Positions 3,655 through 47,971 of a DNA stretch of 48,062 nt are shown piece by piece. Position numbers and translations under genes: made by a program. Source of the DNA: an uncultured Candidatus Saccharibacteria bacterium (GTDB lineage Bacteria > Patescibacteriota > Minisyncoccia > Minisyncoccales > Staskawiczbacteraceae); contig CAZQBZ010000001.1 of assembly GCA_964592355.1 (NCBI GenBank), positions 1-48,062 on the forward strand, given 5' to 3'. The stretch's first letter is position 1, and the number at the start of each line of letters is the position of its first letter. The notes beneath the pieces are model-generated. The model saw only the letters and a list, made by a program, of their open reading frames with translations. It was not told the origin of the DNA and did no database searches.

Positions 3655-4401
3655 ATGCAATGCAAACTTTGTTTAGAGGATAGGGAATTATGTAAAAATT
3701 CGCACATAATCCCGAAGTTTATGTATAAGGAAATTTTTGATGAAAAACATACCTTAGTTAAAAGTAATGTTTTGGATTTTGATAAATTAGTTCAAGATGG
3801 CGAGAAAGAAGGAAATCTGCTATGTAAAAAATGCGATAATGAACTCATTGGTTCTTTTGAAAAATACGCGTCAGAAGTTTTATATGGGGGCAATATTCAG
3901 ACAAAGCAACTGTATTATAAAAAATCAGATGAATCAGATGAAGTTGAATATACTCGGGTAGAAGGATTAGATTATAGAAAATTTAAACTATTTCTTTTGT
4001 CTATATTATGGAGGGCTAGTATCTCAAGTAAAGATTTTTTTTCTTCAGTTTCACTCGGCAGATATGAAGAGAAATTAAGGCAAATGATTTTTACTCAAAA
4101 TGCTGGCGAAGAAGGGGATTTTCCTTGTGTTTTGATATCTTATAGAAAAAGAAATTTTCCTAAAATAATAAGGTCGCCCATCAAAAAAAGGACGCAAGAT
4201 AATAAAATAACATATGATTTTTTGATAAGCGCCCTATCTTACAGATTTAAGGTTTCAGAAAATGATTCCTCGGAGTACAAAAAATTAGCAATAAAGAGAA
4301 ATGGTGAATTATACGTATATCATCCATCAGAAGATTTGGCAAAAGAAAGATTGGAAAAAATGCTCGGAATAATCATTCCGGTCGGTATGAAATTTAATTA
4401 A
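3655..4401 (+). CDS. hypothetical Cys-rich protein (CxxC...SHIIPKF...CxxC), unknown family
   Basis: 248-aa ORF preceded by AGGAG (3642-3646). It has two CxxC pairs (CKLC, CKKC) and an LLSILWRAS motif. No confident family assignment. Confidence 0.6.
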   Translation: MQCKLCLEDRELCKNSHIIPKFMYKEIFDEKHTLVKSNVLDFDKLVQDGEKEGNLLCKKCDNELIGSFEKYASEVLYGGNIQTKQLYYKKSDESDEVEYTRVEGLDYRKFKLFLLSILWRASISSKDFFSSVSLGRYEEKLRQMIFTQNAGEEGDFPCVLISYRKRNFPKIIRSPIKKRTQDNKITYDFLISALSYRFKVSENDSSEYKKLAIKRNGELYVYHPSEDLAKERLEKMLGIIIPVGMKFN

Positions 4402-4429
4402 ATTTATAGTTTTGTGGTAAAATAAATCA

Positions 4430-4981
4430 ATGGAATTGGTAGGCATATCTGCTAGTCAAATTTTTTGGTCACTTTGGCCTCTATGGGCTGTTTTATTAGC
4501 AGTTCCTATATTTGAATTAATTACTCTTTGGATTCGCATAATTTTAAAAAAAAGGCGCATTCGTAGAAAATTTATAAAAGGTGGAGAATGGAGGTCGGAT
4601 AATGAGCTTTTACATTGGCTTCGTGAAATGAAGCCTTGGGAATTTGAAGAATATATTGCTTATTTATTCACGCAACTGGGTTACAAAGCTAAAGCAGTTG
4701 GCAAATCACATGATGGAGGCATTGATGTTGTCATTGAAAAAGATGGCGTTGAAAGCTATATCCAATGTAAAAAATTTATAACTTCTAGTGTGACTGTCAG
4801 CCAAGTCCGCGATTTTTAAGGTTCATTGGTTGATCATCTTGCCAAGGGAAAAGCATATTTTATTACTACTAATAAATTTACCTTAGAGGCGGAAAAATTC
4901 GTCGAAGATAAGCCGATTGAACTTGTGGACGGATTTAAATTGATTGAATACATCAAACTTAGCAAAAAACAGGCAAGATAA
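4430..4981 (+). pseudogene. membrane-anchored Mrr-type (Mrr_cat) restriction endonuclease interrupted by an in-frame TAA at 4817-4819
   Basis: An N-terminal TM segment is followed by WEFEEYIAYLFTQLGY...HDGGIDVVIEKDG..YIQCKK, the D...(D/E)xK nuclease core. After VRDF-TAA the same frame continues as GSLVDHLAKGKAYFITTNKFTLEAEKFVEDKPIELVDGFKLIEYI up to a TAA at 4979-4981. This is the expected rest of the domain. Confidence 0.75.
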
Positions 4982-5100
4982 TTAACCGGCCTGTTTTTAA
5001 TTGGCATAAAATAGATAGCTTATCCGGGTTAGGTCCATTGCAGAGAAGGGAAATATAATATAAGATAACGCATCTCGTTCTTTGATTTGAAAGGAGAATT

Positions 5101-5802
5101 GTGGTGCCGAAAAAAACCAAAAAGACCGATAAGAAGGTAAAAGCTCTGGTGGAAATTTATCTTAGCAGTATTGGCGAGGTGCCTCTGCTTAGCCTTGCCC
5201 AAGAAATCTGGCTGTCAAAGAGAATCGAGCTGGGCAGCAGTTGGGCCCGGCAATACCTTACCAAGGCAAACTTGCGGCTGGTGGTGTCGCGCGCAAAGCT
5301 TTATGTAAAGCGCTCGTTGAACCTCACCCTGTTGGGCCTGATACAAGAAGGCAACATCGGCTTAATGGGCGCTGTGGAAAAATACGACTGGCGGTACAAT
5401 TGCCGGTTTTCCACTTATGCTGTGCCTCGCATCGACAGGGCAATTGAGCGCGCATTGTTTTACGACAATCGCGGCAGTGTTGCCCATTTTTCAATGGACG
5501 AACCCATTGGCCAAGAGGGTGATGAAAGCATGCACGGCCTCGTGGGCGACCAAAAGGCGGTTTGCCCAAGCGCCAAAGCCAATCAAGTGTCTCTGCAAAA
5601 CATTTTTGATGAAGTTTTGCAGGAGCTTAAAGAAAAAGAGCAACAGGTAATCAGCCTTAGCTTCGGGCTTGGCAACGGAGTTGCTTACACAGACAAGGAA
5701 ATTGCCAGGATTCTTGGCACAACCAAGGAAAGGGTGCGCCAGATCAAGGCAAAGGCGCTTAGACGCCTGAAAAACCACGAACGCATTGCCGGACTCAAAT
5801 AG
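5101..5802 (+). CDS. sigma-70 family RNA polymerase sigma factor, divergent short paralog of RpoD
   Basis: [52 protein letters not shown] covers region 2. TDKEIARILGTTKERVRQIKAKALRRLK is the region 4 HTH. GTG start with AGGAG at 5092-5096. Visibly GC-richer than its neighbours. Confidence 0.85.
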   Translation: MVPKKTKKTDKKVKALVEIYLSSIGEVPLLSLAQEIWLSKRIELGSSWARQYLTKANLRLVVSRAKLYVKRSLNLTLLGLIQEGNIGLMGAVEKYDWRYNCRFSTYAVPRIDRAIERALFYDNRGSVAHFSMDEPIGQEGDESMHGLVGDQKAVCPSAKANQVSLQNIFDEVLQELKEKEQQVISLSFGLGNGVAYTDKEIARILGTTKERVRQIKAKALRRLKNHERIAGLK

Positions 5803-5814
5803 TTTGGCTATAGT

Positions 5815-5847
5815 CCCGCGAGTCGCCAAGGCGACCGCGGGTTTTTT
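5815..5847 (+). terminator. rho-independent terminator after the sigma gene
   Basis: CCCGCGAGTCGCC-AAG-GCGACCGCGGG followed by TTTTTT. Confidence 0.7.
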
Positions 5848-5931
5848 GATTGACATTTTACGCAATGCGTGGTAGGGTTTTATTAGAACCTTGGACAATT
5901 CCACACTTTCCACTATCATGGAGAACTAATC

Positions 5932-6615
5932 GTGAAAAGGATTATTGGCAGAGCGGTATTCATTCGCCACGGGGAAACCAAGTATACAAATGAGTTTCCC
6001 GATCTCACTGATGCAGGCAAGGAGACCATCAAACGCGCCGCTGTTGAGATTCGCAAAATCCACAACTTGCGCCCCGATCCCTTGCGCATCATGTCGTCGC
6101 CTGCCCCCAGAGCGTTGGGTACGGCGGCTATCATCTCGCAAATCATGGGCTATGACCAAAGAGTGATCAGAACTTCTTTGCTGTCACCGGCCGACGTGAG
6201 AGACGCAAGGCGCGGCGCTGAAATTTTCAACGAGCACGTTGGCAATGGCGGATTCCGCCAGTTGTCGGCCTGCTATGGATCTGATCAGCGCTACGAGGAT
6301 CCCGCCATCTTTGAACCGCGAACTCAGGTTGTCTCCAGATTTTACGATCATCTGGGTCAACTCGTTCGCAACTTGATGGCAGGCACCCGTCCGCTGTTTG
6401 TGGTGTGCGTGTCGCACTACGAGGTTTTGTACCACTTGGTGGAGACCTCGCTCAGCCTGGACTACGCCAAAGACCACCCGCTCACCTTTGGAGAAATGGC
6501 TTTGCTGTCGTTTTACGACATAGGCCCAGGCTCGACGGTGGAGGTGTGCCTGACTTTCCGCGACAGAAGCCGAAACATGGTTTTCGACTACAAGAAGAAT
6601 CTTGTTGCGCAATAG
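5932..6615 (+). CDS. histidine phosphatase family protein (phosphoglycerate mutase-like)
   Basis: N-terminal RHGET catalytic motif (AVFIRHGETKY) and a later VSHYEVL (His). GTG start with GGAGA 7 nt upstream. GC-rich. Confidence 0.8.
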   Translation: MKRIIGRAVFIRHGETKYTNEFPDLTDAGKETIKRAAVEIRKIHNLRPDPLRIMSSPAPRALGTAAIISQIMGYDQRVIRTSLLSPADVRDARRGAEIFNEHVGNGGFRQLSACYGSDQRYEDPAIFEPRTQVVSRFYDHLGQLVRNLMAGTRPLFVVCVSHYEVLYHLVETSLSLDYAKDHPLTFGEMALLSFYDIGPGSTVEVCLTFRDRSRNMVFDYKKNLVAQ

Positions 6616-6735
6616 CAATTTGCACGGCGCTTTTCTTATTGCGCGAAGACCCTTAACTCGCTCCCAAACTTTTGAACAAAGCAGGGAGCTTTTTGTTTAT
6701 TGCGAAGATTTTTCATTTTGTGGTAAAATATAGAT

Positions 6736-7227
6736 ATGAAAAGGGGGATGAAAATATTTATTGCAATCGCAGTTTTATTTTTGGCTCTTGCTTTTGTTCT
6801 TGGCGCATATCTTTATCAAAAATCAATGGCAGATAAAACTGCCAAAGCAACCGAGGAGTCAGCTGTTAAAAACCTGGTTGAAAGTTTTGGGCAAAAGTTA
6901 AAAAATGTTTACTTGCTTTCAATGACGGCATCCGATGACATTGAGCAGAATTATAAAGATTTTGTTTCTGACGACCTTATAAATCGCTGGAAAACAGAGC
7001 CTTTTTCAGCGCCGGGCAGGGAGACTTCCAGCCCTTGGCCTGACAGCATTGTTGTTGAAGAAATCCGCCAGCAAAATCAAAACGCCTACGAAGTTTCTGG
7101 GAAAATAATAAACATGACAAGCTCGGGCGCGGCCTCCAGCCGAAGCTTTCAAGCCACGGTCTTGCGAATCGGCAAAAACAGGACTTGGCTTATATCAAAT
7201 TTTATTTTAGGGGCCTACTTAAATTGA
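6736..7227 (+). CDS. hypothetical membrane-anchored/secreted protein
   Basis: 163 aa with an N-terminal hydrophobic segment IFIAIAVLFLALAFVLGAYL. Its stop overlaps the next start (TGATG). Confidence 0.55.
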   Translation: MKRGMKIFIAIAVLFLALAFVLGAYLYQKSMADKTAKATEESAVKNLVESFGQKLKNVYLLSMTASDDIEQNYKDFVSDDLINRWKTEPFSAPGRETSSPWPDSIVVEEIRQQNQNAYEVSGKIINMTSSGAASSRSFQATVLRIGKNRTWLISNFILGAYLN

Positions 7228-7682
7228 TGAAAAAGAAAAATAAGCAAATAATAAATATAATAATTATTTCTCTTGCCGCAATCGCGCTTGCCGGAGCAAT
7301 TACGTTTTGGATTTATAAAGCATTTTTGGGGCCTAAAACCGATATATATTCGGGCACATGGGTTTGGGAAAAGACAATAATGAACGACGACACAACAATT
7401 ATGCCAAATCAGGCAGAAGCCTTCACTTTAACCTTTGTAATTGGCGGCAGGGTTTCCGGCGAAACGGACTGTAATGGTTTTACCGGCAATTTTGCGATCA
7501 CGCAGGACGGGAGTATAACTTTTAACCAGTTGGCAAGCACAGAAATGTTTTGCCAGGATTCGCAAGAAAATATATTTTTAGACGAAATTCAAAATGTTGA
7601 CCGATATCTTTTTGATAAATCGGGAAACTTGGTGCTCAATTTAAAGTTTGATTCGGGGAGCATTTATTTTAAAAAACAATAA
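7227..7682 (+). CDS. META domain protein (HslJ-like), membrane anchored
   Basis: CNGFTGNFAITQDGSITFNQLASTEMFC...ENIFLDEIQNVDRYLFDKSGNLVL matches the META/DUF306 pattern. The internal ATG at 7227 was chosen because it is translationally coupled to the upstream stop. Confidence 0.75.
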   Translation: MKKKNKQIINIIIISLAAIALAGAITFWIYKAFLGPKTDIYSGTWVWEKTIMNDDTTIMPNQAEAFTLTFVIGGRVSGETDCNGFTGNFAITQDGSITFNQLASTEMFCQDSQENIFLDEIQNVDRYLFDKSGNLVLNLKFDSGSIYFKKQ

Positions 7683-7751: not shown

Positions 7752-8516
7752 ATGAATAAAAGTTTTCTATGGTTTATTTTTGGCATTATTATAATAGTCG
7801 CCATTGCAGCCGCTGTGCTGTATTCGCAAGGATATATATCTATTAAAACGTCCCAGCTGACAGGCACTATTTCTTATCGGGAGAAAATAGTATTGCCTCA
7901 GGGCAGCGAGATAGTGGCGCAAATTCGCGATATCACCTCGGGAGATCCAGTAGTGGTGGCTGAAACAAAAATCACAACGCAGGGAGAAAATGTGCCAGTT
8001 TCCTTTACCATAAATTACAATCCAGTCAAAATATCAGAAGACAGAAATTATGATATTTATGCCACGATTGCGGTTGATGGCCAGACAAAGTGGGTTAATA
8101 TCGATTACACGCCTCTTTTGGAAGGCGGAGTTCCCAAGTCTTCCGTTGACCTTATGCTCGTGTTTGCCGAATCATCAAGTCAGATTTCGGCGACTGATTT
8201 GGCGGGAAAGGTTTTTCGCGCAGCCTATTTTAATGGCTCAGAGGTGCCATCTGATGCGGATTATACTTTAAGCTTTAATTCTGGCTCGATAGTGGCCCAA
8301 ATATGCAATATGATGTCGGGTAATTTTACAATCAATGGCGGGGTTATCTCCGGCAGTTTGATAACAACGGAAAAGCTATGCACAAGCCCATCGGGAATCA
8401 TGCAGGTGGAAGACGCCTTTAAGTCTATGATGGATTCCGGAGCCAATTTAGATTTTTCAAATGATGCCTTAACTCTTTCCGGCCAAGGCGCAAGCATAGT
8501 ATTTATCCAGCAATAG
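7752..8516 (+). CDS. YbaY-like lipoprotein domain + META domain protein
   Basis: An N-terminal TM segment is followed by ISYREKIVLPQGSEIVAQIRDI...NYDIYATIAVDG (YbaY-like). The C-terminus CNMMSGNFTINGG..ITTEKLC...ALTLSG is META-like. Confidence 0.65.
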   Translation: MNKSFLWFIFGIIIIVAIAAAVLYSQGYISIKTSQLTGTISYREKIVLPQGSEIVAQIRDITSGDPVVVAETKITTQGENVPVSFTINYNPVKISEDRNYDIYATIAVDGQTKWVNIDYTPLLEGGVPKSSVDLMLVFAESSSQISATDLAGKVFRAAYFNGSEVPSDADYTLSFNSGSIVAQICNMMSGNFTINGGVISGSLITTEKLCTSPSGIMQVEDAFKSMMDSGANLDFSNDALTLSGQGASIVFIQQ

Positions 8517-8525
8517 AAACAGAGC

Positions 8526-9122
8526 ATGAAAGCCTTAATTATTTTTGGTCACCCGGACACCAATATCGGTTTTGCTGTCAACATGTTGGAGGCGGTTAAA
8601 AACCGCCTGCAAGAAAGGGAGTGTGATTTTGAGGTCCTGGATTTGTATAAAATGAATTATGATCCGGTTTTAAAGTCAAGCGAGCTTTATACAGCGGGAA
8701 ATAGGGAGATTAGTTCGGAAAACTTGCAAATACAACAGAAAATAAAAGAGGCAAACGGCCTAATTTTCATTTACCCTGTCTGGTGGGGCGGGATGCCCGC
8801 GATAATGAAAGGATTTATGGATAGGGTTTTTACTCCCTGGTTTGCTTTTAAATACAGAAAAGATAAGCTTATGAATTTTGTTCCTGATAAATTGCTGGAT
8901 GATAAAAAGATTGCGGCTTTTGTGAGCTTTGGCGCGCCAAGATTTGTGTATGCGATGCTTTTGCATCCGGTTAAAATAATAAACAAGTTTGTTATATTCG
9001 GCCTTTTTTCTAAAAAATCCAAAACATTTTGCATATATAAGGCAAATTCGGCAACGGCTAAAGACAGGATGGCTCAAATAGCAAAAACGGCCCGGCAGGG
9101 AGTGGACTGGCTTATAGGTTGA
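8526..9122 (+). CDS. NAD(P)H dehydrogenase (quinone)/flavodoxin-like fold oxidoreductase
   Basis: MKALIIFGHP...LIFIYPVWWGGMPAIMKGFMDRVF is typical of the Flavodoxin_2 family. Confidence 0.75.
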   Translation: MKALIIFGHPDTNIGFAVNMLEAVKNRLQERECDFEVLDLYKMNYDPVLKSSELYTAGNREISSENLQIQQKIKEANGLIFIYPVWWGGMPAIMKGFMDRVFTPWFAFKYRKDKLMNFVPDKLLDDKKIAAFVSFGAPRFVYAMLLHPVKIINKFVIFGLFSKKSKTFCIYKANSATAKDRMAQIAKTARQGVDWLIG

Positions 9123-9207
9123 CAAAACCGAATAAAATACTAAGGTAAAGCAGTAGCTCTTTTTGTTAACCTGTTTCTATCAGATCCGCCAGAAAGGAGG
9201 AAGGACG

Positions 9208-9591
9208 ATGTTGCTTAGCATTTCGGAGCCTTGCGTTGAGTCAATGCAGGGCTCTCTGTTGTTTGTGGACTTTGTTGCCTTGTGCAGCAAGGTTGTTGAC
9301 GTCAACAAAGATAGGCGGTACTTTATCCGCGATTCTTCTGACAACAACACCCAAGAGGGTCCCACAGGCAAGAATGGATGCCGGAAATACTCCATTTGGT
9401 TGGAGTACGATGGCCAGCCTTTACTCAAAAGTGTGAAGGCTTCCAACTGGGAGGCAGAAGCCGACCGCCAGCTTGACCGCGAGGTTCAAGAGAGGATTTT
9501 TCTGCTGCAAGAACACGAAGAAGCCCGGCGCATATTTGAACTGGCAAAACGTTTCTTGGAGCGTAAAAAGCCCTTGTGCCAATGTAAGTAG
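9208..9591 (+). CDS. hypothetical protein (GC-rich orphan)
   Basis: ATG at 9208 is preceded by AGGAGG (9195-9200). 127 aa, no recognised family. Composition is GC-rich. Confidence 0.5.
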   Translation: MLLSISEPCVESMQGSLLFVDFVALCSKVVDVNKDRRYFIRDSSDNNTQEGPTGKNGCRKYSIWLEYDGQPLLKSVKASNWEAEADRQLDREVQERIFLLQEHEEARRIFELAKRFLERKKPLCQCK

Positions 9592-9732
9592 CCGGAAGGC
9601 GACATTTTTTAAGGCCCCGAGATAATATCAACGGGCCTTTTGCTTTTGCGGTGTTTTTACAGTTGCAAAAAGTTTTAAAATGTGTATAAAATAAAATATC
9701 TGTTTTTAAAATAGAAATTACGTTTTATATAA

Positions 9733-10461
9733 ATGGAAGAGATTTCTTTAAAGGCGCAACAGATTTTCAGTCTTGGAAACTTTCAAGTGACCAACTCTTT
9801 TTTTTTAACTCTTGTAGTTTGCGTTTTTTTGTTGGGATTTGCGATTTTGCTGAATAGAAAAATAAAATTGGTGCCGGGCAGGCTTCAGGGGGCAGTTGAA
9901 ATGGGAGCCGAGGCCCTGCTTAATTTGATGGAATCCACCCTGGGCAGCATGCATAACGCCAGAAAATATTTTCCCCTTGTCGCAACGATATTTTTATTTA
10001 TCCTTACCTGCAATTTGTTTGGGCTTTTGCCGGGAGTCGGGTCAGCTTGGATAGAATTTAACCATCACGAGGTGCCATTATTCAGATCGCCCGCCGCCGA
10101 CCTTAACTTTACATTAGCGTTTGCCGTGATTTCCGTTTTGGTGACAAATGCCTTGGGAATGGCGGCAACAGGAGTATTCAGCCATCTTGGCAAGTATTTT
10201 AACTTTAAGGGTCCGATAGAATTCTTTGTTGGAATTTTGGAAATAGTGTCGGAAATTGCCAAAATAGTCAGTTTGTCTTTCAGGCTGTTCGGGAATGTGT
10301 TTGCGGGAGAGGTGCTGCTTACGATCGTAACGTTTTTAGCGCCGTATTTTATACCATTGCCATTTATGTTTTTGGAAGTGTTTGTGGGAATGATTCAGGC
10401 ATTTATATTCGCAATGATAACACTGGTTTCAATATCGCTTCATACGGCAGAACATCACTAA
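9733..10461 (+). CDS. atpB: F0F1 ATP synthase subunit a
   Basis: Multi-TM protein with LSFRLFGNVFAGE (conserved Arg helix). First gene of the atp cluster. Confidence 0.92.
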   Translation: MEEISLKAQQIFSLGNFQVTNSFFLTLVVCVFLLGFAILLNRKIKLVPGRLQGAVEMGAEALLNLMESTLGSMHNARKYFPLVATIFLFILTCNLFGLLPGVGSAWIEFNHHEVPLFRSPAADLNFTLAFAVISVLVTNALGMAATGVFSHLGKYFNFKGPIEFFVGILEIVSEIAKIVSLSFRLFGNVFAGEVLLTIVTFLAPYFIPLPFMFLEVFVGMIQAFIFAMITLVSISLHTAEHH

Positions 10462-20360: not shown

Positions 20361-20563
20361 AAAATTAAATGCCCACGATAGGGCTTTTAATTTGCAGATA
20401 CCTGGTAGGAGGGTTGGTGAGGTAAAAAGGGTTCTTATAATTATTTTTACCCTATGTCGTCTCAGAATTTTTGTATATGTTGCCATGAACAGAGTTGCGT
20501 TGCCAGCGCGCGAAAAATCAAGACTCCTTGCAGAGATAAAATGGCCGGGTGTATTATAATAAT

Positions 20564-21529
20564 ATGAACAAATACCTACTATTAACTCTATTAATTATAT
20601 TATTCGTAATTATTTTTGCCTCGTTTCAATATTTTTATCCTGGGAGCCCGGAGAATATTAATTCTAAGAATTTTGAAATACTTGCTCATCGAGGCGCGCA
20701 TGTGATGTGGAAGCAGGGAGAATATGATTTGGCGACGGGATGCGAGGCAACCCATATTTATAAGCCGACAGAAGATCAAACATATATTGAAAACACTATT
20801 GAATCAATTAAGAAGGCGTTTGAGTTAGGAGCAACGATTGTCGAAATTGACATCAGATCAAGCAAGGATAATGTTTTAATGATAAGCCATGAAGAAAATT
20901 TGGAATGTAAAACGGATGGACATGGAAAGATTGGCGACTACACGGCAGATGAGCTTAAAAAACTTGATGTCGGTTATGGTTTCACTTATGACGATGGGCA
21001 GACATATCCATATAGAGGAAAAGGCATAGGGAAAATGCCAACTCTTCAAGAAGTTTTAAAAGAATTTCCCGATAAAAAATTTTTAATTGATCATAAGGAT
21101 CGCACTAAGGAAACGACCGATTTGCTGATTAGTGTATTAAAAGAACTTAAAGAAGAACAAAGACAAAAGATATTTTTTTGGAGCTCTAAAGAAATGGGGG
21201 ACTACTTGCAAAAAGAGGTTCCAGAAACAAAGCGCTTATTGGCTAATCGTTCGGAAATGAAATCTTGCATAATTAAATATGTTGCCAGTTTTGGCATATT
21301 AGGCTTTGGGGATGAATGCAGTGACTTGGCTATAGTAATGACTAAGCAATACTCTAAGTATATGTGGGGCTGGCCTTATAGCTTCATTAAAAAGGCCCAA
21401 GATAACAATAGCGCCGTGTTTTTAATGGCCGATACTGCAGAGGAAATTGAATGGGCGAAAAATTTGCCAGTTGACGGAGTAATAACAGATTATATTGAAT
21501 TAATTGCCCCTGCTTTTGGAAATAAATAA
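20564..21529 (+). CDS. glycerophosphodiester phosphodiesterase family protein, N-terminal membrane anchor
   Basis: ILAHRGAH...ENTIESIKKAFELGATIVEIDIRSSKDNVLMISHE is a GDPD signature. The ATG at 20564 is preferred over the GTG at 20549. Confidence 0.75.
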   Translation: MNKYLLLTLLIILFVIIFASFQYFYPGSPENINSKNFEILAHRGAHVMWKQGEYDLATGCEATHIYKPTEDQTYIENTIESIKKAFELGATIVEIDIRSSKDNVLMISHEENLECKTDGHGKIGDYTADELKKLDVGYGFTYDDGQTYPYRGKGIGKMPTLQEVLKEFPDKKFLIDHKDRTKETTDLLISVLKELKEEQRQKIFFWSSKEMGDYLQKEVPETKRLLANRSEMKSCIIKYVASFGILGFGDECSDLAIVMTKQYSKYMWGWPYSFIKKAQDNNSAVFLMADTAEEIEWAKNLPVDGVITDYIELIAPAFGNK

Positions 21530-21706
21530 TATATGAGAGAGATTATAAACTGGATGCGAAATAAAGACAAATAATAACGAAAAACAAGATATAGATCAAA
21601 AATACGCGATTTTTCGCGTATTTTTAGTTGAGAACCCTTTATATTCCCTTTTTTCGTATAGGCTTTTAGAAAGGTCGGATATTAAAACCAAAAAATGTGA
21701 ATATAA

Positions 21707-22285
21707 ATGAATAAGAAATATTTTTTGTATGCCATAGTTCCGGCGCTGCTTCTGGCCTCTGTCGGGGCGGCTGCTTACGCTTCCCAGGCGCAAGACGCTA
21801 ACCCAATGGCCGGCATAGTGGCAAAAATAGCTCAAAAGTTTAATTTGAGCCAAAATGATGTCCAGGCGGTTTTTGATGAATACAGAGATGAAGAAAAAAT
21901 TGAACGTGATGCAAAAATGCAAGAGACACAGGCGCAGATGGAGCAAAAGGTTAAAGACGAATTAACCCAAGCTGTATCTGACGGCAAATTGACACAGGCT
22001 CAAATGGATTTAATCTTGGCTAAACGCGCAGAGTTGCAGGCCGAAAAGCCAGCAATGAGCCAGCAGGCGCCTGGAAAGCCTTCAACTTCAAAAACAAAGG
22101 AAGAAATGGAGGCCGAAAGAACTGCCCGACAGGCAGAAATGAAATCCAAGCAGGATGCCTTAAAACAATGGGCAACTGATAATGGAATTTCAGAAGAATA
22201 CCTCAAATTTGTAGGCAATATGCCAGGGTTTGGGGGAGAGCGCAAAGGTTTCGGCAATATTAATAATCAATCCGATGCTAAATAG
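21707..22285 (+). CDS. hypothetical secreted protein (signal peptide, Gln/Glu/Lys-rich helical)
   Basis: Signal-like N-terminus MNKKYFLYAIVPALLLASVGAAAYASQA followed by low-complexity helical sequence. Confidence 0.6.
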   Translation: MNKKYFLYAIVPALLLASVGAAAYASQAQDANPMAGIVAKIAQKFNLSQNDVQAVFDEYRDEEKIERDAKMQETQAQMEQKVKDELTQAVSDGKLTQAQMDLILAKRAELQAEKPAMSQQAPGKPSTSKTKEEMEAERTARQAEMKSKQDALKQWATDNGISEEYLKFVGNMPGFGGERKGFGNINNQSDAK

Positions 22286-22296
22286 CATTTGAGGTT

Positions 22297-22337
22297 GCGC
22301 CCCTAAAAGGAGATAATTAGATCTCCTTTTTGGCGCA
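22297..22337 (+). terminator. rho-independent terminator
   Basis: GCGCCCCTAAAAGGAGAT-AATTAG-ATCTCCTTTTTGGCGC. Confidence 0.65.
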
Positions 22338-22423
22338 ATATGATTTTGAATAAATATAAATCCACGAGCTTACGCTCGCAGTATTATATCGCTACGCTAA
22401 AAACGTCAGAAATAATAAAAATT

Positions 22424-22735
22424 ATGGACAATAAAACCAAAAAAATTATAACATGGCTGTTAGTGGTTATCGTCGTGTTTGCGGCAGGATTCGGTTCAGG
22501 ATATTTGTTTGGAAAGTCATCTGGTCCGGGAAGATTCTCTGAAATACCAGATGGATTTGGGGGTGTCAGGAATTCCGGAAATAATGTTAATTCCGGATCA
22601 AATTCTGAAACGGAGAATGATGTTAATTCCGGATCGGATTCACTAAACAGAAATATAAGACAGCAGCCTGGAACACAAGCTCCGGAGGGCCAAACTCCAG
22701 AGGGTCAAATGCCCCAGGATATTCAGGCCGAGTAG
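22424..22735 (+). CDS. hypothetical membrane-anchored low-complexity protein
   Basis: An internal ATG is followed by a TM segment (IITWLLVVIVVFAAGFGSGYLF) and Asn/Ser/Gly-rich repeats (NSGNNVNSGSNSETENDVNSGSDS). Confidence 0.5.
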   Translation: MDNKTKKIITWLLVVIVVFAAGFGSGYLFGKSSGPGRFSEIPDGFGGVRNSGNNVNSGSNSETENDVNSGSDSLNRNIRQQPGTQAPEGQTPEGQMPQDIQAE

Positions 22736-22869
22736 CTTTGATAGAAAAACAACAAAAAAACGCCAGGATATGCTGGTGTTTTTTTGTTTGCAAACAAGGT
22801 GTGGTTATGATATTGTTTGCCATAAGCACCTTTCCAAATTCCTCATTCCCTTCAGGGAGGTTGATAGCG

Positions 22870-23448
22870 ATGAGAAAAATAAATCCGAACTGGCTGACCG
22901 CTTCACGCATGGTGGTGTTTGCCCCATTGGCTCTTGGCCTTTTGTGTCTGGATACTCAGCTAAGCCTGGCATTATGTTTGGTTGTGATGCTGCTGGCCGA
23001 GCTGACAGATGCGCTTGATGGCGCGCTGGCCCGCGCCACGGGGCAGGTTACAGACCTGGGCAAGATATTTGACCCTTTGTGCGACTCCGTCTATCACGGC
23101 CTGGTGTGGATGGGATTTGTGGCAGCAGGCTGGATGCCGGCCTATGTAGCCGCCATCTTTTTGTTTCGCGACCAGATAGTGGCCTACATCAGGGTTTACC
23201 TGGCGCAAAAGCAGTTTATAATGGCTGCCCGGTGGTCAGGCAAGGTTAAGGCCGTTTCGCAGGCAACTGCTCAGATAGCAGTGGTTGTGCTGCATTTGGC
23301 ATTGCCCGATACCGAGGCTTCCCGCATAGCTCAGCTGTGCCTGATTGGCGTGGCAGCGGCTGTCACTCTATATTCCCTGATTGACTACATTAAGGGAGGG
23401 CTTTTGCAAAAAGCAGACATTGCGGCGCATTTTAAAGCCGCAGCGTAA
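22870..23448 (+). CDS. CDP-alcohol phosphatidyltransferase family protein
   Basis: DALDGALARATGQVTDLGKIFDPLCD matches D-G-x2-A-R-x8-G-x3-D-x3-D. ATG at 22870 with GGAGG 9 nt upstream. GC-rich. Confidence 0.85.
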   Translation: MRKINPNWLTASRMVVFAPLALGLLCLDTQLSLALCLVVMLLAELTDALDGALARATGQVTDLGKIFDPLCDSVYHGLVWMGFVAAGWMPAYVAAIFLFRDQIVAYIRVYLAQKQFIMAARWSGKVKAVSQATAQIAVVVLHLALPDTEASRIAQLCLIGVAAAVTLYSLIDYIKGGLLQKADIAAHFKAAA

Positions 23449-44976: not shown

Positions 44977-45475
44977 AATTTTAACATTATTTTTAGCGCT
45001 GTTTTTTGCCGCAGCTGGCTCAGTTAAAGCCGTATGCCCGGTTTGCGTGGTGGCAGTGGGCGGAGGGCTTGGCATTTCAAGATGGCTGGGTGTTGATGAT
45101 GCTATTTCTTCTCTGTGGATTGGCGCATTGCTGGCGGCAATGTCGCTTTGGACAATAGACTGGATCCAAAAGAAAAATTGGAAATTCGTTTTTTATAAAG
45201 CCGTCACATGGGTTTTGTATTATGGGCTTACCGTCGGACCCTTGTATTATTATGGGCTGATTGGCCACCCATTAAACAAAATTTTTGGCATAGATAAAAT
45301 ATTGTTCGGAGTGATTTTGGGGACAGCAGTGTTTTTGGGCGGGGTGTGGCTGAACTTATTTTTGAAATTAAAAAACAATGGTAAGCAGTACTTTAATTAT
45401 CAAAAAGTGGTGGTGCCATTTTTGTCGCTTGTAGCGGCCAGCTTAATTCTTTATTTGATAATAATATGGAAATAA
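44960..45475 (+). CDS. hypothetical polytopic membrane protein with an N-terminal CPVC motif
   Basis: The internal ATG at 44960 gives a signal-like MKFQSKILTLFLALFFAAAGS followed by VCPVCVVAVGGG. There are 4-5 TM segments. It overlaps the upstream gene by 17 nt. Confidence 0.55.
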   Translation: MKFQSKILTLFLALFFAAAGSVKAVCPVCVVAVGGGLGISRWLGVDDAISSLWIGALLAAMSLWTIDWIQKKNWKFVFYKAVTWVLYYGLTVGPLYYYGLIGHPLNKIFGIDKILFGVILGTAVFLGGVWLNLFLKLKNNGKQYFNYQKVVVPFLSLVAASLILYLIIIWK

Positions 45476-45996
45476 ACAACCAAAAAATAGACGAATTTGT
45501 AAAAAAAGTAAATTCAAGCAAAGACAATCAGCTTGATTTGTCTTCGGACGAAGATTTGTCCATTGCTATAATGAATTTAATTTCTATAGAAGAACACTTC
45601 TTTTTTACCGCGAATAAAACAGGAAAATCAGAATATTTTGATTTGCTCAATACCGCCCGAGAAATGAGGAAAGATTTGCTTAAGAGAATCATAAAAGACC
45701 CGGAAGGAGAAGTTTGGTGCATTTCAAAGCATTTGCTGGCCTCATCAATGAGGCTTATGGAGGTGGGCACGAAGGCTCAGGGGCGTGGCAACAAGAAGGA
45801 TGCAGAGGAATTGTTTAAAAAAGCCTACGAGCTTTATAGCCTGTTTTGGGGCATAAACTTAAAGCTTATTGATTTGGGCGAAGTCAAAAAAATAGACGAA
45901 AACCAAATTGACGCAAAAGACCAAGATAAGAAAATCGGAATTATGGCAAAACTCGGCCAAGTGGTGCAAAAGGTGATTGACTGCTGTAAAGAGTAA
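45466..45996 (+). CDS. hypothetical protein
   Basis: 176-aa ORF overlapping the upstream stop by 10 nt, with a terminator-like hairpin downstream. No family recognised. Confidence 0.5.
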   Translation: MEINNQKIDEFVKKVNSSKDNQLDLSSDEDLSIAIMNLISIEEHFFFTANKTGKSEYFDLLNTAREMRKDLLKRIIKDPEGEVWCISKHLLASSMRLMEVGTKAQGRGNKKDAEELFKKAYELYSLFWGINLKLIDLGEVKKIDENQIDAKDQDKKIGIMAKLGQVVQKVIDCCKE

Positions 45997-46117
45997 AAAG
46001 AATTTAAAAACCGTCCGTGGGCGGTTTTTATTTTCAAAAAATTGAAATTCTTTCACAAAAATGGTAAATTTTGCATAGTTATCGTTTGGTTCCTGAACAA
46101 CTAAATAGGAGAATGCA

Positions 46118-47068
46118 ATGAAGCTTCACGGAATTGATTTTGGAAATATTCTTGGCGCTTCAGGCGCGCAGGGATTTTTTGGGGAAGGCTACTGGTTTCA
46201 CAAATTCTTTAAGCCTTTTGGCTTGGATTTTTCCGGGATGACCTTTGTGTCAAAAACCGCCACGCGTTGGCCGAACGAAGGCAACATGCCGCTCACGCAA
46301 GACTACAGGCCGCGTGATTTTTTTCCCGGGTGTGTCAGGGTAAAGCCCTGGCGCGGAGCGATACTAAACGCCGTTGGCCTTAGTAATCCTGGTCTGGAAG
46401 CCTTGCTGGCTACGGGTTTTTGGCAAGAAAGGACGGACCCCTTTTTTATATCCGTGATGTCGCTGGCCGATACGCCAGAAGGCCGTCTTGAAGAATTGGG
46501 CCAAATGGTGGACTTGATCGGGGAGCAAAAAGACAGGTTTTCTGCGCCTTTCGGTTTGCAGATTAACTTATCGTGTCCCAACACCAAACACAACCCGCGC
46601 CAGCTGGTTGGCGAATCCGAAAAGTCGCTCGCCGTGGCAAGCAGGCTTGGGGTGCCGTTGATGCCAAAGTATAGCATTGCTTCGGCATCCGTGGCAGCAA
46701 TCAGAGAATTGGATGACAATCCACTTTGTGATGCCATTTGCGTATCTAATACGGTGCCGTTTGGTTCGCCATGCATTAATTGGCAAAGGGCATGGGGGAG
46801 CAAGAAGTCTCCGCTTGAAAAATACGGCGGAGGCGGACTTTCCGGGTCTGCGCTTTGCCTTTTGGTGTGTGATTGGATTGCATATCTGCGTGACGCCGGG
46901 TTTTCTAAACCCATTAATGGCGGAGGGGGTATTATGCATCCAGATGACGTTTTGGTTTATTATGAAGCCGGGGCGTCTTCGGTATTTATCGGTTCGGTTG
47001 CATCGCTTCGACCGTGGCGCGTGAAGGCCATTATCGATCAGGCAAACGACCTGAAGTGGAAAAGATAG
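46118..47068 (+). CDS. dihydroorotate dehydrogenase family (PyrD-like TIM barrel) protein
   Basis: INLSCPNT, GGGGLSGSAL and INGGGGI...GASSVFIGS motifs. AGGAG lies 6 nt upstream of the ATG. GC-rich. Confidence 0.65.
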   Translation: MKLHGIDFGNILGASGAQGFFGEGYWFHKFFKPFGLDFSGMTFVSKTATRWPNEGNMPLTQDYRPRDFFPGCVRVKPWRGAILNAVGLSNPGLEALLATGFWQERTDPFFISVMSLADTPEGRLEELGQMVDLIGEQKDRFSAPFGLQINLSCPNTKHNPRQLVGESEKSLAVASRLGVPLMPKYSIASASVAAIRELDDNPLCDAICVSNTVPFGSPCINWQRAWGSKKSPLEKYGGGGLSGSALCLLVCDWIAYLRDAGFSKPINGGGGIMHPDDVLVYYEAGASSVFIGSVASLRPWRVKAIIDQANDLKWKR

Positions 47069-47073
47069 GTCAT

Positions 47074-47116
47074 GTCCTCGCGTTTTTGGCAGTTGCCGGA
47101 ACGCGAGGACTTTTTG
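47074..47116 (+). terminator. rho-independent terminator
   Basis: GTCCTCGCGTT...AACGCGAGGAC followed by TTTTT. Confidence 0.7.
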
Positions 47117-47170: not shown

Positions 47171-47971
47171 ATGTTCGGACTAAATAAATCAACGCCAAAA
47201 TTTTGCAACTTATCGGGGAAAGTGGCAATTATAACAGGCGCAGCCAAGGGAATGGGCAGGGCTCATGCTTTGACTTTGGCCAAAGCCGGAGCAAAGGTTG
47301 TGGTAACTGATATTGATGTTGATGGAATTCAAAAGGTTGTTGAAGAAATTAAAAAAGAAAGAGGCGAGGCGATAAACATTAAGTGCGATCAGAGCCAAAA
47401 ATCAGATGTTGATAATGTTATAAGCCAAACCATGGGCAAATTTGGGAAAATAGACATTTTGGTGAATAATGCAGGAATTTTTCCCACAAAGCCATTTTTG
47501 GAAATGGAAGAAAGAGATTTTGAAAAAGTGATTGATGTAAATTTAAAAGGATATTTTTTAATGGCCCAGGCCGTTGCCAAAGAAATGCAAAAAAATAGCA
47601 AGAACGAGAAAGGGCAGAGAGGGGTGATTGTGAATATCGCATCTATTGCAGCCATGGTCGGATTTCAGGGGCTTTCGCATTATTGCGCCTCAAAAGGCGG
47701 AATTGTTGGAATGTCCAGGGCGATAGCGCTTGAATTGGCCCCCTTGGGCATACGCATAAATACAATCAATCCAGGGGCAATAGACACACCGGGCGCTTCC
47801 ATGAGCAATATTCCAGAAGAACAGAGAAAGGCAATAATGGCGCCAATCCCGATGAAAAGGCAGGCGGACGCCCAAGAAGTTGCCAATGCGGTTTTATTTT
47901 TAGTGTCGGACGAAGCTTCTTATATGACAGGGTCTGAGGTGGTTGTCGACGGAGGCTGGACCGCTGCGTAA
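47171..47971 (+). CDS. SDR family oxidoreductase (FabG-like)
   Basis: ITGAAKGMGRA (TGxxxGxG), NNAG and the YCASKGG (YxxxK) catalytic motif. Confidence 0.88.
   Translation: MFGLNKSTPKFCNLSGKVAIITGAAKGMGRAHALTLAKAGAKVVVTDIDVDGIQKVVEEIKKERGEAINIKCDQSQKSDVDNVISQTMGKFGKIDILVNNAGIFPTKPFLEMEERDFEKVIDVNLKGYFLMAQAVAKEMQKNSKNEKGQRGVIVNIASIAAMVGFQGLSHYCASKGGIVGMSRAIALELAPLGIRINTINPGAIDTPGASMSNIPEEQRKAIMAPIPMKRQADAQEVANAVLFLVSDEASYMTGSEVVVDGGWTAA

Follow-up and report, generated by a model that had tools for sequence, protein, structure and literature searches.

The DNA studied here (the window) is one entire contig of 48,062 nt (CAZQBZ010000001.1, forward strand) from the metagenome-assembled genome GCA_964592355.1 of an uncultured Candidatus Saccharibacteria bacterium of the family Staskawiczbacteraceae (Patescibacteriota). 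Our subject is a set of five GC-rich genes in this window, each led by a Shine–Dalgarno (SD) motif and dispersed among native genes of ordinary composition. The genome, hereafter G000, comprises 656,653 bp in 49 contigs with a GC content of 40.0% and a completeness of 98.6%; the mean GC of the window is 0.403. Native neighbour genes share 62–75% protein identity with Candidatus Staskawiczbacteria contigs, and the public sequencing runs that contain this stretch derive from anaerobic digesters, no RNA run being listed among them. A nucleotide-level search of the genus, which is of low sensitivity, matched atpB alone (64–74%), and an Rfam scan of the window returned only a tRNA-Ser. The five genes encode a short sigma factor, a histidine phosphatase (HisPhos), an orphan protein (orf9208), a CDP-alcohol phosphatidyltransferase and a PyrD-like protein. 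With their flanking signals they are arranged as follows (GC3, GC at third codon positions).

5041–5100, + strand: promoter-like block together with the sigma leader; SD AGGAG at 5092–5096 before GTG 5101.
5101–5802, + strand: short sigma-70-family factor, 233 aa, GC 0.504, GC3 0.59, with Pfam regions 1.2, 2 and 4.
5813–5847, + strand: GC-rich hairpin and T-run, terminator-like, read from the sequence after the sigma gene.
5850–5931, + strand: promoter-like region together with the phosphatase leader; SD GGAGA at 5920–5924 before GTG 5932.
5932–6615, + strand: histidine phosphatase (branch 1), HisPhos, 227 aa, GC 0.539, GC3 0.66, Pfam His_Phos_1.
9195–9591, + strand: SD AGGAGG at 9195–9200 and the orphan orf9208 (9208–9591, ATG 9208), 127 aa, GC about 0.50, GC3 0.60.
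22856–23448, + strand: SD GGAGG at 22856–22860 and the CDP-alcohol phosphatidyltransferase gene (22870–23448, ATG), 192 aa, GC 0.51, PF01066 (CDP-OH_P_transf).
46042–46117, + strand: extended −10 promoter-like site (TTGAAA, 17 nt, TG, TAAATT) and leader, with SD AGGAG at 46107–46111 before ATG 46118.
46118–47068, + strand: PyrD-like TIM-barrel protein, 316 aa, GC 0.513, Pfam DHO_dh.
47075–47115, + strand: hairpin GTCCTCGCG...CGCGAGGAC and T-run, read from the sequence after the PyrD-like gene; its loop exceeds the limit of the consensus scan.

An initial annotation had described four patches around these genes as GC-richer than their surroundings, and a profile in 400-nt windows bears this out, with values of 0.50–0.565 against a background of about 0.40 (0.47–0.56 at 5001–6600, 0.50 at 9201–9600, 0.53–0.565 at 22801–23400 and 0.51–0.52 at 46201–47000). 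The pile-up of long spurious open reading frames (ORFs) reported in the same patches is no more than a by-product of GC content. ORFs were called mechanically across all of G000, and 618 of them served as the reference for deviations in GC and GC3. Gene GC forms a tight mode at 0.397 with a robust standard deviation of 0.035 and a heavy right tail. In units of the robust standard deviation, the five genes lie +2.8 to +4.1 relative to the median for GC and +3.0 to +5.5 for GC3. Codon usage in all five falls within the bottom 6–13% of the genome, and the compositional deviation is strong. We defined a GC-rich class as ORFs with a GC of at least 0.48; after removal of ORFs overlapping rRNA it has 40 members, which are scattered and make up 4.4% of G000. 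Mean GC at codon positions 1, 2 and 3 is 0.54, 0.42 and 0.60 in this class versus 0.45, 0.34 and 0.39 in native ORFs, and hence the biggest gap is at silent positions.

The same genes stand apart in how their leaders are built. All five SD motifs are found exactly where the initial annotation had placed them, 4–9 nt ahead of the start codons. Scoring an SD core as GGAG, GAGG or AGGA with its end 3–12 nt upstream of the start, we detected one in 21 of the 40 GC-rich ORFs (52%) and in 15 of the 539 low-GC native ORFs (2.8%; Fisher p=3e-18). SD motifs are therefore rare in native genes across the whole genome, as had been proposed from a handful of housekeeping genes. The chance rate of the core within coding sequence is about 10%, and the native rate below it indicates that native leaders, which are 44–56% A, are depleted of the motif. 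The frequency of a strong SD rises with gene GC, from 5–9% in the lower classes to 19% at 0.45–0.48, 29% at 0.48–0.51 and 59% at 0.51 or above. A congener fetched for comparison (G015; 701 kb, 35.7% GC) shows the same split in a different set of genes, with an SD core in 15 of 34 high-GC ORFs versus 23 of 567 low-GC ORFs.

The partner that such motifs would pair with is absent. The sole 16S gene of G000, on contig C30, ends in ...GGAUCAUUUUUUU / ...GTGGATCATTTTTTTAAATTTT, and its tail reads GGATCATTTTTTTAAA; within C30:6680–6830 the gene ends GGATCA followed by TTTTTTTAAA, not CCTCCTTA. CCTCC does not occur within 90 nt after the 16S end in the gene sequence, from which the mature 3′ end is inferred, and no second locus resembling a 16S tail with CCUCC was found anywhere in G000. 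It is likewise missing from every readable 16S tail among 40 relatives searched, which included several congeners and eight other families of the order; these tails differ from one another. Of the two elements of SD-dependent initiation, then, a motif 4–10 nt upstream of the start is present and a complementary CCUCC at the 16S 3′ end is not. With the anti-SD lost from 16S, the SD motifs of the GC-rich genes have no textbook pairing partner. The loss itself is context here, since it has already been published for one Parcubacteria subgroup (Tsurumaki et al. 2022, RNA 28:1041, PMC9297842).

We next consider distribution; the figures below for 400 genomes of the order, 400 of the phylum and seven congeners are samples, not complete surveys. 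Reciprocal best matches in G015 exist for 382 of 551 low-GC ORFs of G000 (69%, median identity 66%) and for 7 of 44 GC-rich ORFs (16%), several of the seven being spurious ORFs in rRNA. An ortholog in G015 is lacking for all five window genes, and such close homologs as bear a name are all from Patescibacteria.

The PyrD-like gene provides the clearest case, and conflict between gene tree and organismal relationships was assessed on this gene, close named homologs being absent for sigma, HisPhos and the CDP-alcohol transferase. Its subfamily was present in just 5 of the 400 genomes of the order, at 46–56% identity. The window protein is 64–70% identical to copies from Doudna-, Ryan-, Niyogi- and Uhrbacteria, 62–70% identical over a set that also takes in Buchanan- and Peregrinibacteria, and 46–56% identical to those of congeners. 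In the gene tree a supported clade unites the congeners' copies with a single copy from Staskawiczbacteria and is itself nested in a larger supported clade; the window gene lies outside both. Constraining it to group with three congeners costs 118 log-likelihood units and is rejected by the approximately unbiased (AU) test (p=0.0014), so the gene does not place with its vertical relatives. Its neighbours, a gene at 45466–45996 and a FabG-like gene at 47171–47971, are adjacent in G015 and 170 nt apart, constituting an empty site. Within the family the PyrD-like gene occupies three different chromosomal sites, with one gene-tree clade per site, and the site used by the congeners is empty in G000.

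The PyrD-like leader is itself conserved over long distances. Its motif ...GAACAACTAAATAGGAG is common to copies of other lineages of the Candidate Phyla Radiation (CPR), and in distant CPR lineages it stands behind an extended −10 box each time. The element C(T/C)T(A/G)AACAA(C/T)TAAAT lies directly 5′ of the SD (window 46081–46117) and recurs at loci L084, L085, L089, L090, L093–L095 and L115. A hairpin sequestering the SD in this leader was considered and dropped, because RNAalifold gives no common structure for the leader, conserved though its motif is. In many CPR genomes (loci L083, L087, L089, L090, L093–L095 and L111) the end of the PyrD-like gene, TGGAGGTAA, coincides in part with the SD of a gene coupled to it downstream, whose product starts M..(I/L)TLRR(L/F)DDMHCHFR and is amidohydrolase- or dihydroorotase-like; the window copy lost this partner or never had it.

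The sigma protein matches sigma-70 regions 2 and 4 (PF04542, 1.6e-10; PF04545, 1.5e-14) as well as region 1.2; Pfam detected no region 3 in it or in its ten closest homologs. Its family, whose members are about 230 aa long, is rare: some ten homologs have 46–88% identity, the next matches being RpoD proteins at 40% or less, and G015 offers just a paralog match at 35%. Family members lie in unrelated genomic contexts. Four relatives with different upstream neighbours share, in conserved form, the block ahead of the gene, AAATATAATATAAGATAACGCATC...TTTGAAAGGAGAATTGTG; the homology of the four begins about 55 nt ahead of the sigma start and places the left edge of the unit there. HisPhos has only 11 homologs among 5.8e9 proteins; it was present in 5 of the 400 phylum genomes, in 4 of the 400 order genomes (at 43% identity or less) and in none of the seven congeners, and its top Atlas cluster is Minisyncoccota. 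The homolog in one genome of the same bacterial family (L275/L277, at G795:C12:30705–31265) matches in two separate pieces, residues 2–76 and 123–224, and may be a broken gene. For orf9208 there is no Pfam or PHROG family, and no relative beyond its own cluster among 1.8e9 cluster representatives.

These three genes are shared with a sister species. A 31-kb contig of that species from another metagenome (L209) has the gene order of the window: YgjP, sigma (89%), HisPhos (88%), four intervening genes, orf9208 (82%, at the same place) and atpB (97.5%). Divergence from it at four-fold degenerate sites is 0.27 for sigma, 0.32 for HisPhos and 0.17 for orf9208, within the native range of 0.16–0.55, and the three genes must therefore already have been in the common ancestor. 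The 93 nt after the sigma hairpin, comprising promoter-like hexamers, leader and SD, differ by 6.5% between the two species, while four-fold sites differ by 27–37%. The candidate phosphatase promoter in this interval was read by eye as TTGACA (5850–5855), 17 nt and TAGGGT (5873–5878), and differently by the consensus scan as TGGACA at 5892 and TATCAT at 5919; a promoter at the latter place would leave the SD outside the mRNA. The consensus scan does not list the hairpin at 5813–5847, and three relatives each have a different hairpin there. Between the YgjP-like gene and the sigma gene lies a further slot, holding this pair.

3655–4819, + strand: two AT-rich accessory genes, GC3 0.25, about three standard deviations below the mode.

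The first of the pair encodes an unknown protein and has the SD AGGAG, and the second (4430–4819) carries an Mrr_cat nuclease domain. The same slot is filled by different genes in L209 and in L213 and has no gene in L211 (L211 and L213 being loci of further relatives), and this variation among relatives identifies it as a cassette hot spot.

The CDP-alcohol phosphatidyltransferase was found in 36 of the 400 phylum genomes, with a best identity of 42%; no match came from its own class or order. The gene sits within a 6.4-kb stretch after the tRNA-Ser gene, the equivalent of which in G015 is about 1.5 kb. Two genes upstream of it in this variable stretch (window 20549–23448) is a gene for a glycerophosphodiester phosphodiesterase (GDPD), and the proximity of the two may reflect a lipid head-group theme.

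Beyond the window, a second hot spot in G000 lies downstream of the C6_13404 ortholog (contig C6, 12085–13403; compared across loci L282–L303). It is empty in four congeners and filled in G000, G015, G008 and G018 with GC-rich (0.49–0.59), mostly SD-led genes on the opposite strand. Their products are Pro/Ala-rich proteins anchored in the membrane by the N-terminus, with detectable relatedness only between G000 and G015, at 28%. In some congeners fragment-sized GC-rich ORFs occur at this site, and these may be remnants. No shared border repeats were found in a search of the site.

Neither the patch genes nor their neighbours have integrase or transposase domains. Nothing resembling attC or IntI was noticed in the inspected junctions, although no search was aimed at either. 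No prophage context was evident, the neighbours being ATP synthase, FabG, META lipoproteins and similar genes, and a phage origin is unsupported because the PHROG matches are generic family matches only. The suggestion that these genes form foreign islands is thus supported as to foreignness and overstated as to islands: we find single-gene units of 0.4–1.5 kb with no mobility gene, which are not genomic islands in the classical sense. Two further observations on composition concern other parts of the genome. GC climbs to 0.525 at the extreme end of the contig (window 47601–48000), where the FabG-like gene has its 3′ part or has already ended. On contig C14 (10563–13703) a block of three genes with a GC of 0.53 each encodes an unknown protein, an acyltransferase and a class-V aminotransferase; an SD core precedes the called start in two of the three, and G015 has an ortholog of none of them.

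The composition and SD contrast, the patchy distribution, the empty sites, the multiple insertion sites and the PyrD-like tree support the proposal of the initial annotation that the GC-rich genes are foreign. For the accompanying claim, that they came from an SD-using lineage of higher GC, no specific donor of that kind was found; the donors appear to be other Patescibacteria, and the nearest PyrD-like copies sit in SD-poor contexts of lower GC. We consider it probable, with considerable reserve, that the five genes are self-contained accessory units acquired horizontally, mainly from a pool within the Patescibacteria, whose SD signals are relics that erode with residence time. Each unit would consist of a promoter-like site, an SD leader, one ORF and usually a hairpin terminator, an anatomy predicted from consensus promoter-like sites and from hairpins recognized by eye. 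Units drawn from a gene pool circulating mainly among Patescibacteria would have inserted repeatedly at variable gaps that separate conserved genes, no integrase being in the vicinity; uptake may have been by transformation and recombination, no vehicle having been seen. The host order has lost the 16S CCUCC and starts its own genes from A/U-rich leaders devoid of SD, so that motifs brought in from SD-using sources would probably serve no function in this host and would fade with time. Erosion of this kind is suggested by the PyrD-like clade with a common insertion site. There the SD reads AAGGAGAG in L111 and AAAGGAAA in G016 and is gone from G024 and G005, the GC3 excess falls alongside it (+0.18, +0.09, +0.06), and the ORF remains intact, which implies that the SD is dispensable in G024 and G005.

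Several observations weigh against this interpretation. The sigma, HisPhos and orf9208 genes lie at the same places in the sister species and are not recent arrivals, and polarised third-position changes in sigma and HisPhos number 94 GC>AT to 86 AT>GC (28:24 in the window lineage), where about 72% GC>AT would be expected had they drifted toward host composition. This count depends on the root, the three lineages being nearly equidistant, and rooting on the L209 branch could raise the share to as much as 76% GC>AT. The promoter and leader blocks of both genes, with their SD motifs, have changed far less than silent sites. Across 45 CPR loci the PyrD-like gene keeps its SD in 21 of 24 hosts whose flanking genes have none, and its GC excess is larger in those hosts than in the others (+0.07 versus +0.02; Spearman −0.51, p=3e-4). 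Moreover, neither a donor nor a vehicle is identified. Most of these points would suit instead a long-resident class of genes, in which selection or a gene-specific process such as biased gene conversion holds the GC content and the purine-rich leader in place, perhaps for initiation or regulation that does not need an anti-SD. Some of the hosts that retain the PyrD-like SD are on long branches, and positional counterparts in G000 and G015 keep both the GC excess and the SD at 28–31% protein identity. Against long residence stand the patchy distribution and empty sites, the occurrence of one family at three insertion sites with a tree that conflicts with species relationships, the unrelated proteins at a single hot spot, the loss of the SD from intact genes in G024 and G005, and the absence of an anti-SD anywhere in G000. 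On balance we regard this alternative as possible but rather unlikely. Continual re-import from a pool fits the data on SD retention and composition, and maintenance by selection fits them too.

The GC excess might also be intrinsic, set by amino-acid composition or expression level, and so carry no information on origin. In nearly all of 45 CPR lineages the GC of the PyrD-like gene exceeds that of its flanks, and at first and second codon positions the excess is steady across the shared-site clade, which indicates that part of the GC-richness of this gene is due to amino-acid composition. As a general account this is very unlikely, since the difference is greatest at third positions (0.60 versus 0.39), a GC3 excess that largely refutes it, the five genes belong to unrelated families, one of them an orphan, and the SD motifs lie outside coding sequence. 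Donors outside the Patescibacteria, for example the host organism of the episymbiont, would be in keeping with a GC of 0.50–0.58, above that of most relatives, and some RpoD matches to the sigma factor are from Firmicutes, albeit at the same identity of about 37% as the RpoDs of CPR bacteria. Given that every named close homolog is from Patescibacteria, that the top HisPhos cluster is Minisyncoccota, and that the CDP-alcohol transferase matches within the phylum, we think such a source improbable. A chimera of assembly or binning must be entertained for any metagenome-assembled genome in 49 contigs; here it is effectively refuted, because contigs from other samples cover 4400–7535 and 7753–9800 with zero differences, a relative from a landfill study, 10–14% diverged, spans the Mrr–sigma and orf8526–orf9208 junctions, and L209 has the same gene order.

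Comparison with known systems helps to define what is particular to these units. Phage morons are autonomous promoter–ORF–terminator units inserted between conserved genes. The units described here resemble them in being apparently self-contained single genes of atypical composition with conserved neighbours and variable slot occupancy, and differ in having no prophage context and in lying among housekeeping genes of a cellular chromosome. Foreign genes are said to ameliorate toward the composition of their host, a model attributed to Lawrence and Ochman. The class with atypical GC3 agrees with this model, as does the apparent fading of GC3 and SD in the older PyrD-like clade, but the lack of a clear GC>AT bias in sigma and HisPhos does not. 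Gios et al. (2025, mSystems, PMC12455944) reported that horizontal gene transfer is frequent in Patescibacteria, with 83% of detected transfers into them coming from other Patescibacteria. Our findings are similar in the accessory metabolic and regulatory functions involved and in transfer being mostly between Patescibacteria; that study, however, makes no mention of SD or anti-SD (0 occurrences), and here each unit is a single gene unaccompanied by mobility genes. The Parcubacteria subgroup of Tsurumaki et al. likewise has 16S rRNA without CCUCCU, although the accessible portion of that paper (PMC9297842) describes the rRNA and not a minority of SD-bearing genes. SD-independent initiation in Bacteroidota, where about 3% of genes are SD-led in B. 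ovatus (bioRxiv 10.1101/193490), offers a parallel in its A-rich leaders and its few per cent of SD genes. Bacteroidota keep the anti-SD and the window lineage has lost it, and thus the residual SD motifs here need a different explanation. The combination of GC-rich SD-led genes with anti-SD loss was not found in the literature searched, which included PMC12455944 and the accessible portion of PMC9297842.

A more tentative possibility, which we consider unlikely, is that lineages without an anti-SD contain a special class of accessory genes whose GC-rich codons and GGAGG-type leader are under active maintenance. If so, the motif would have a function independent of the anti-SD, such as recognition by a protein or RNA reader, a regulatory role, or provision of the structure-free purine tract that GC-rich mRNAs would need. 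Selection may instead act on a gene pool that needs to be expressible in many hosts. In a lineage that lacks the anti-SD, an SD together with high GC3 is a cheap and very specific flag of accessory genes (52% versus 2.8%), by which gene flow among ultra-small, uncultured bacteria could be mapped. These lineages also provide a natural experiment on the role of the SD once its partner has gone. If the motifs decay, acquisitions would become datable; if they are held, translation initiation in these bacteria would have an unknown component.

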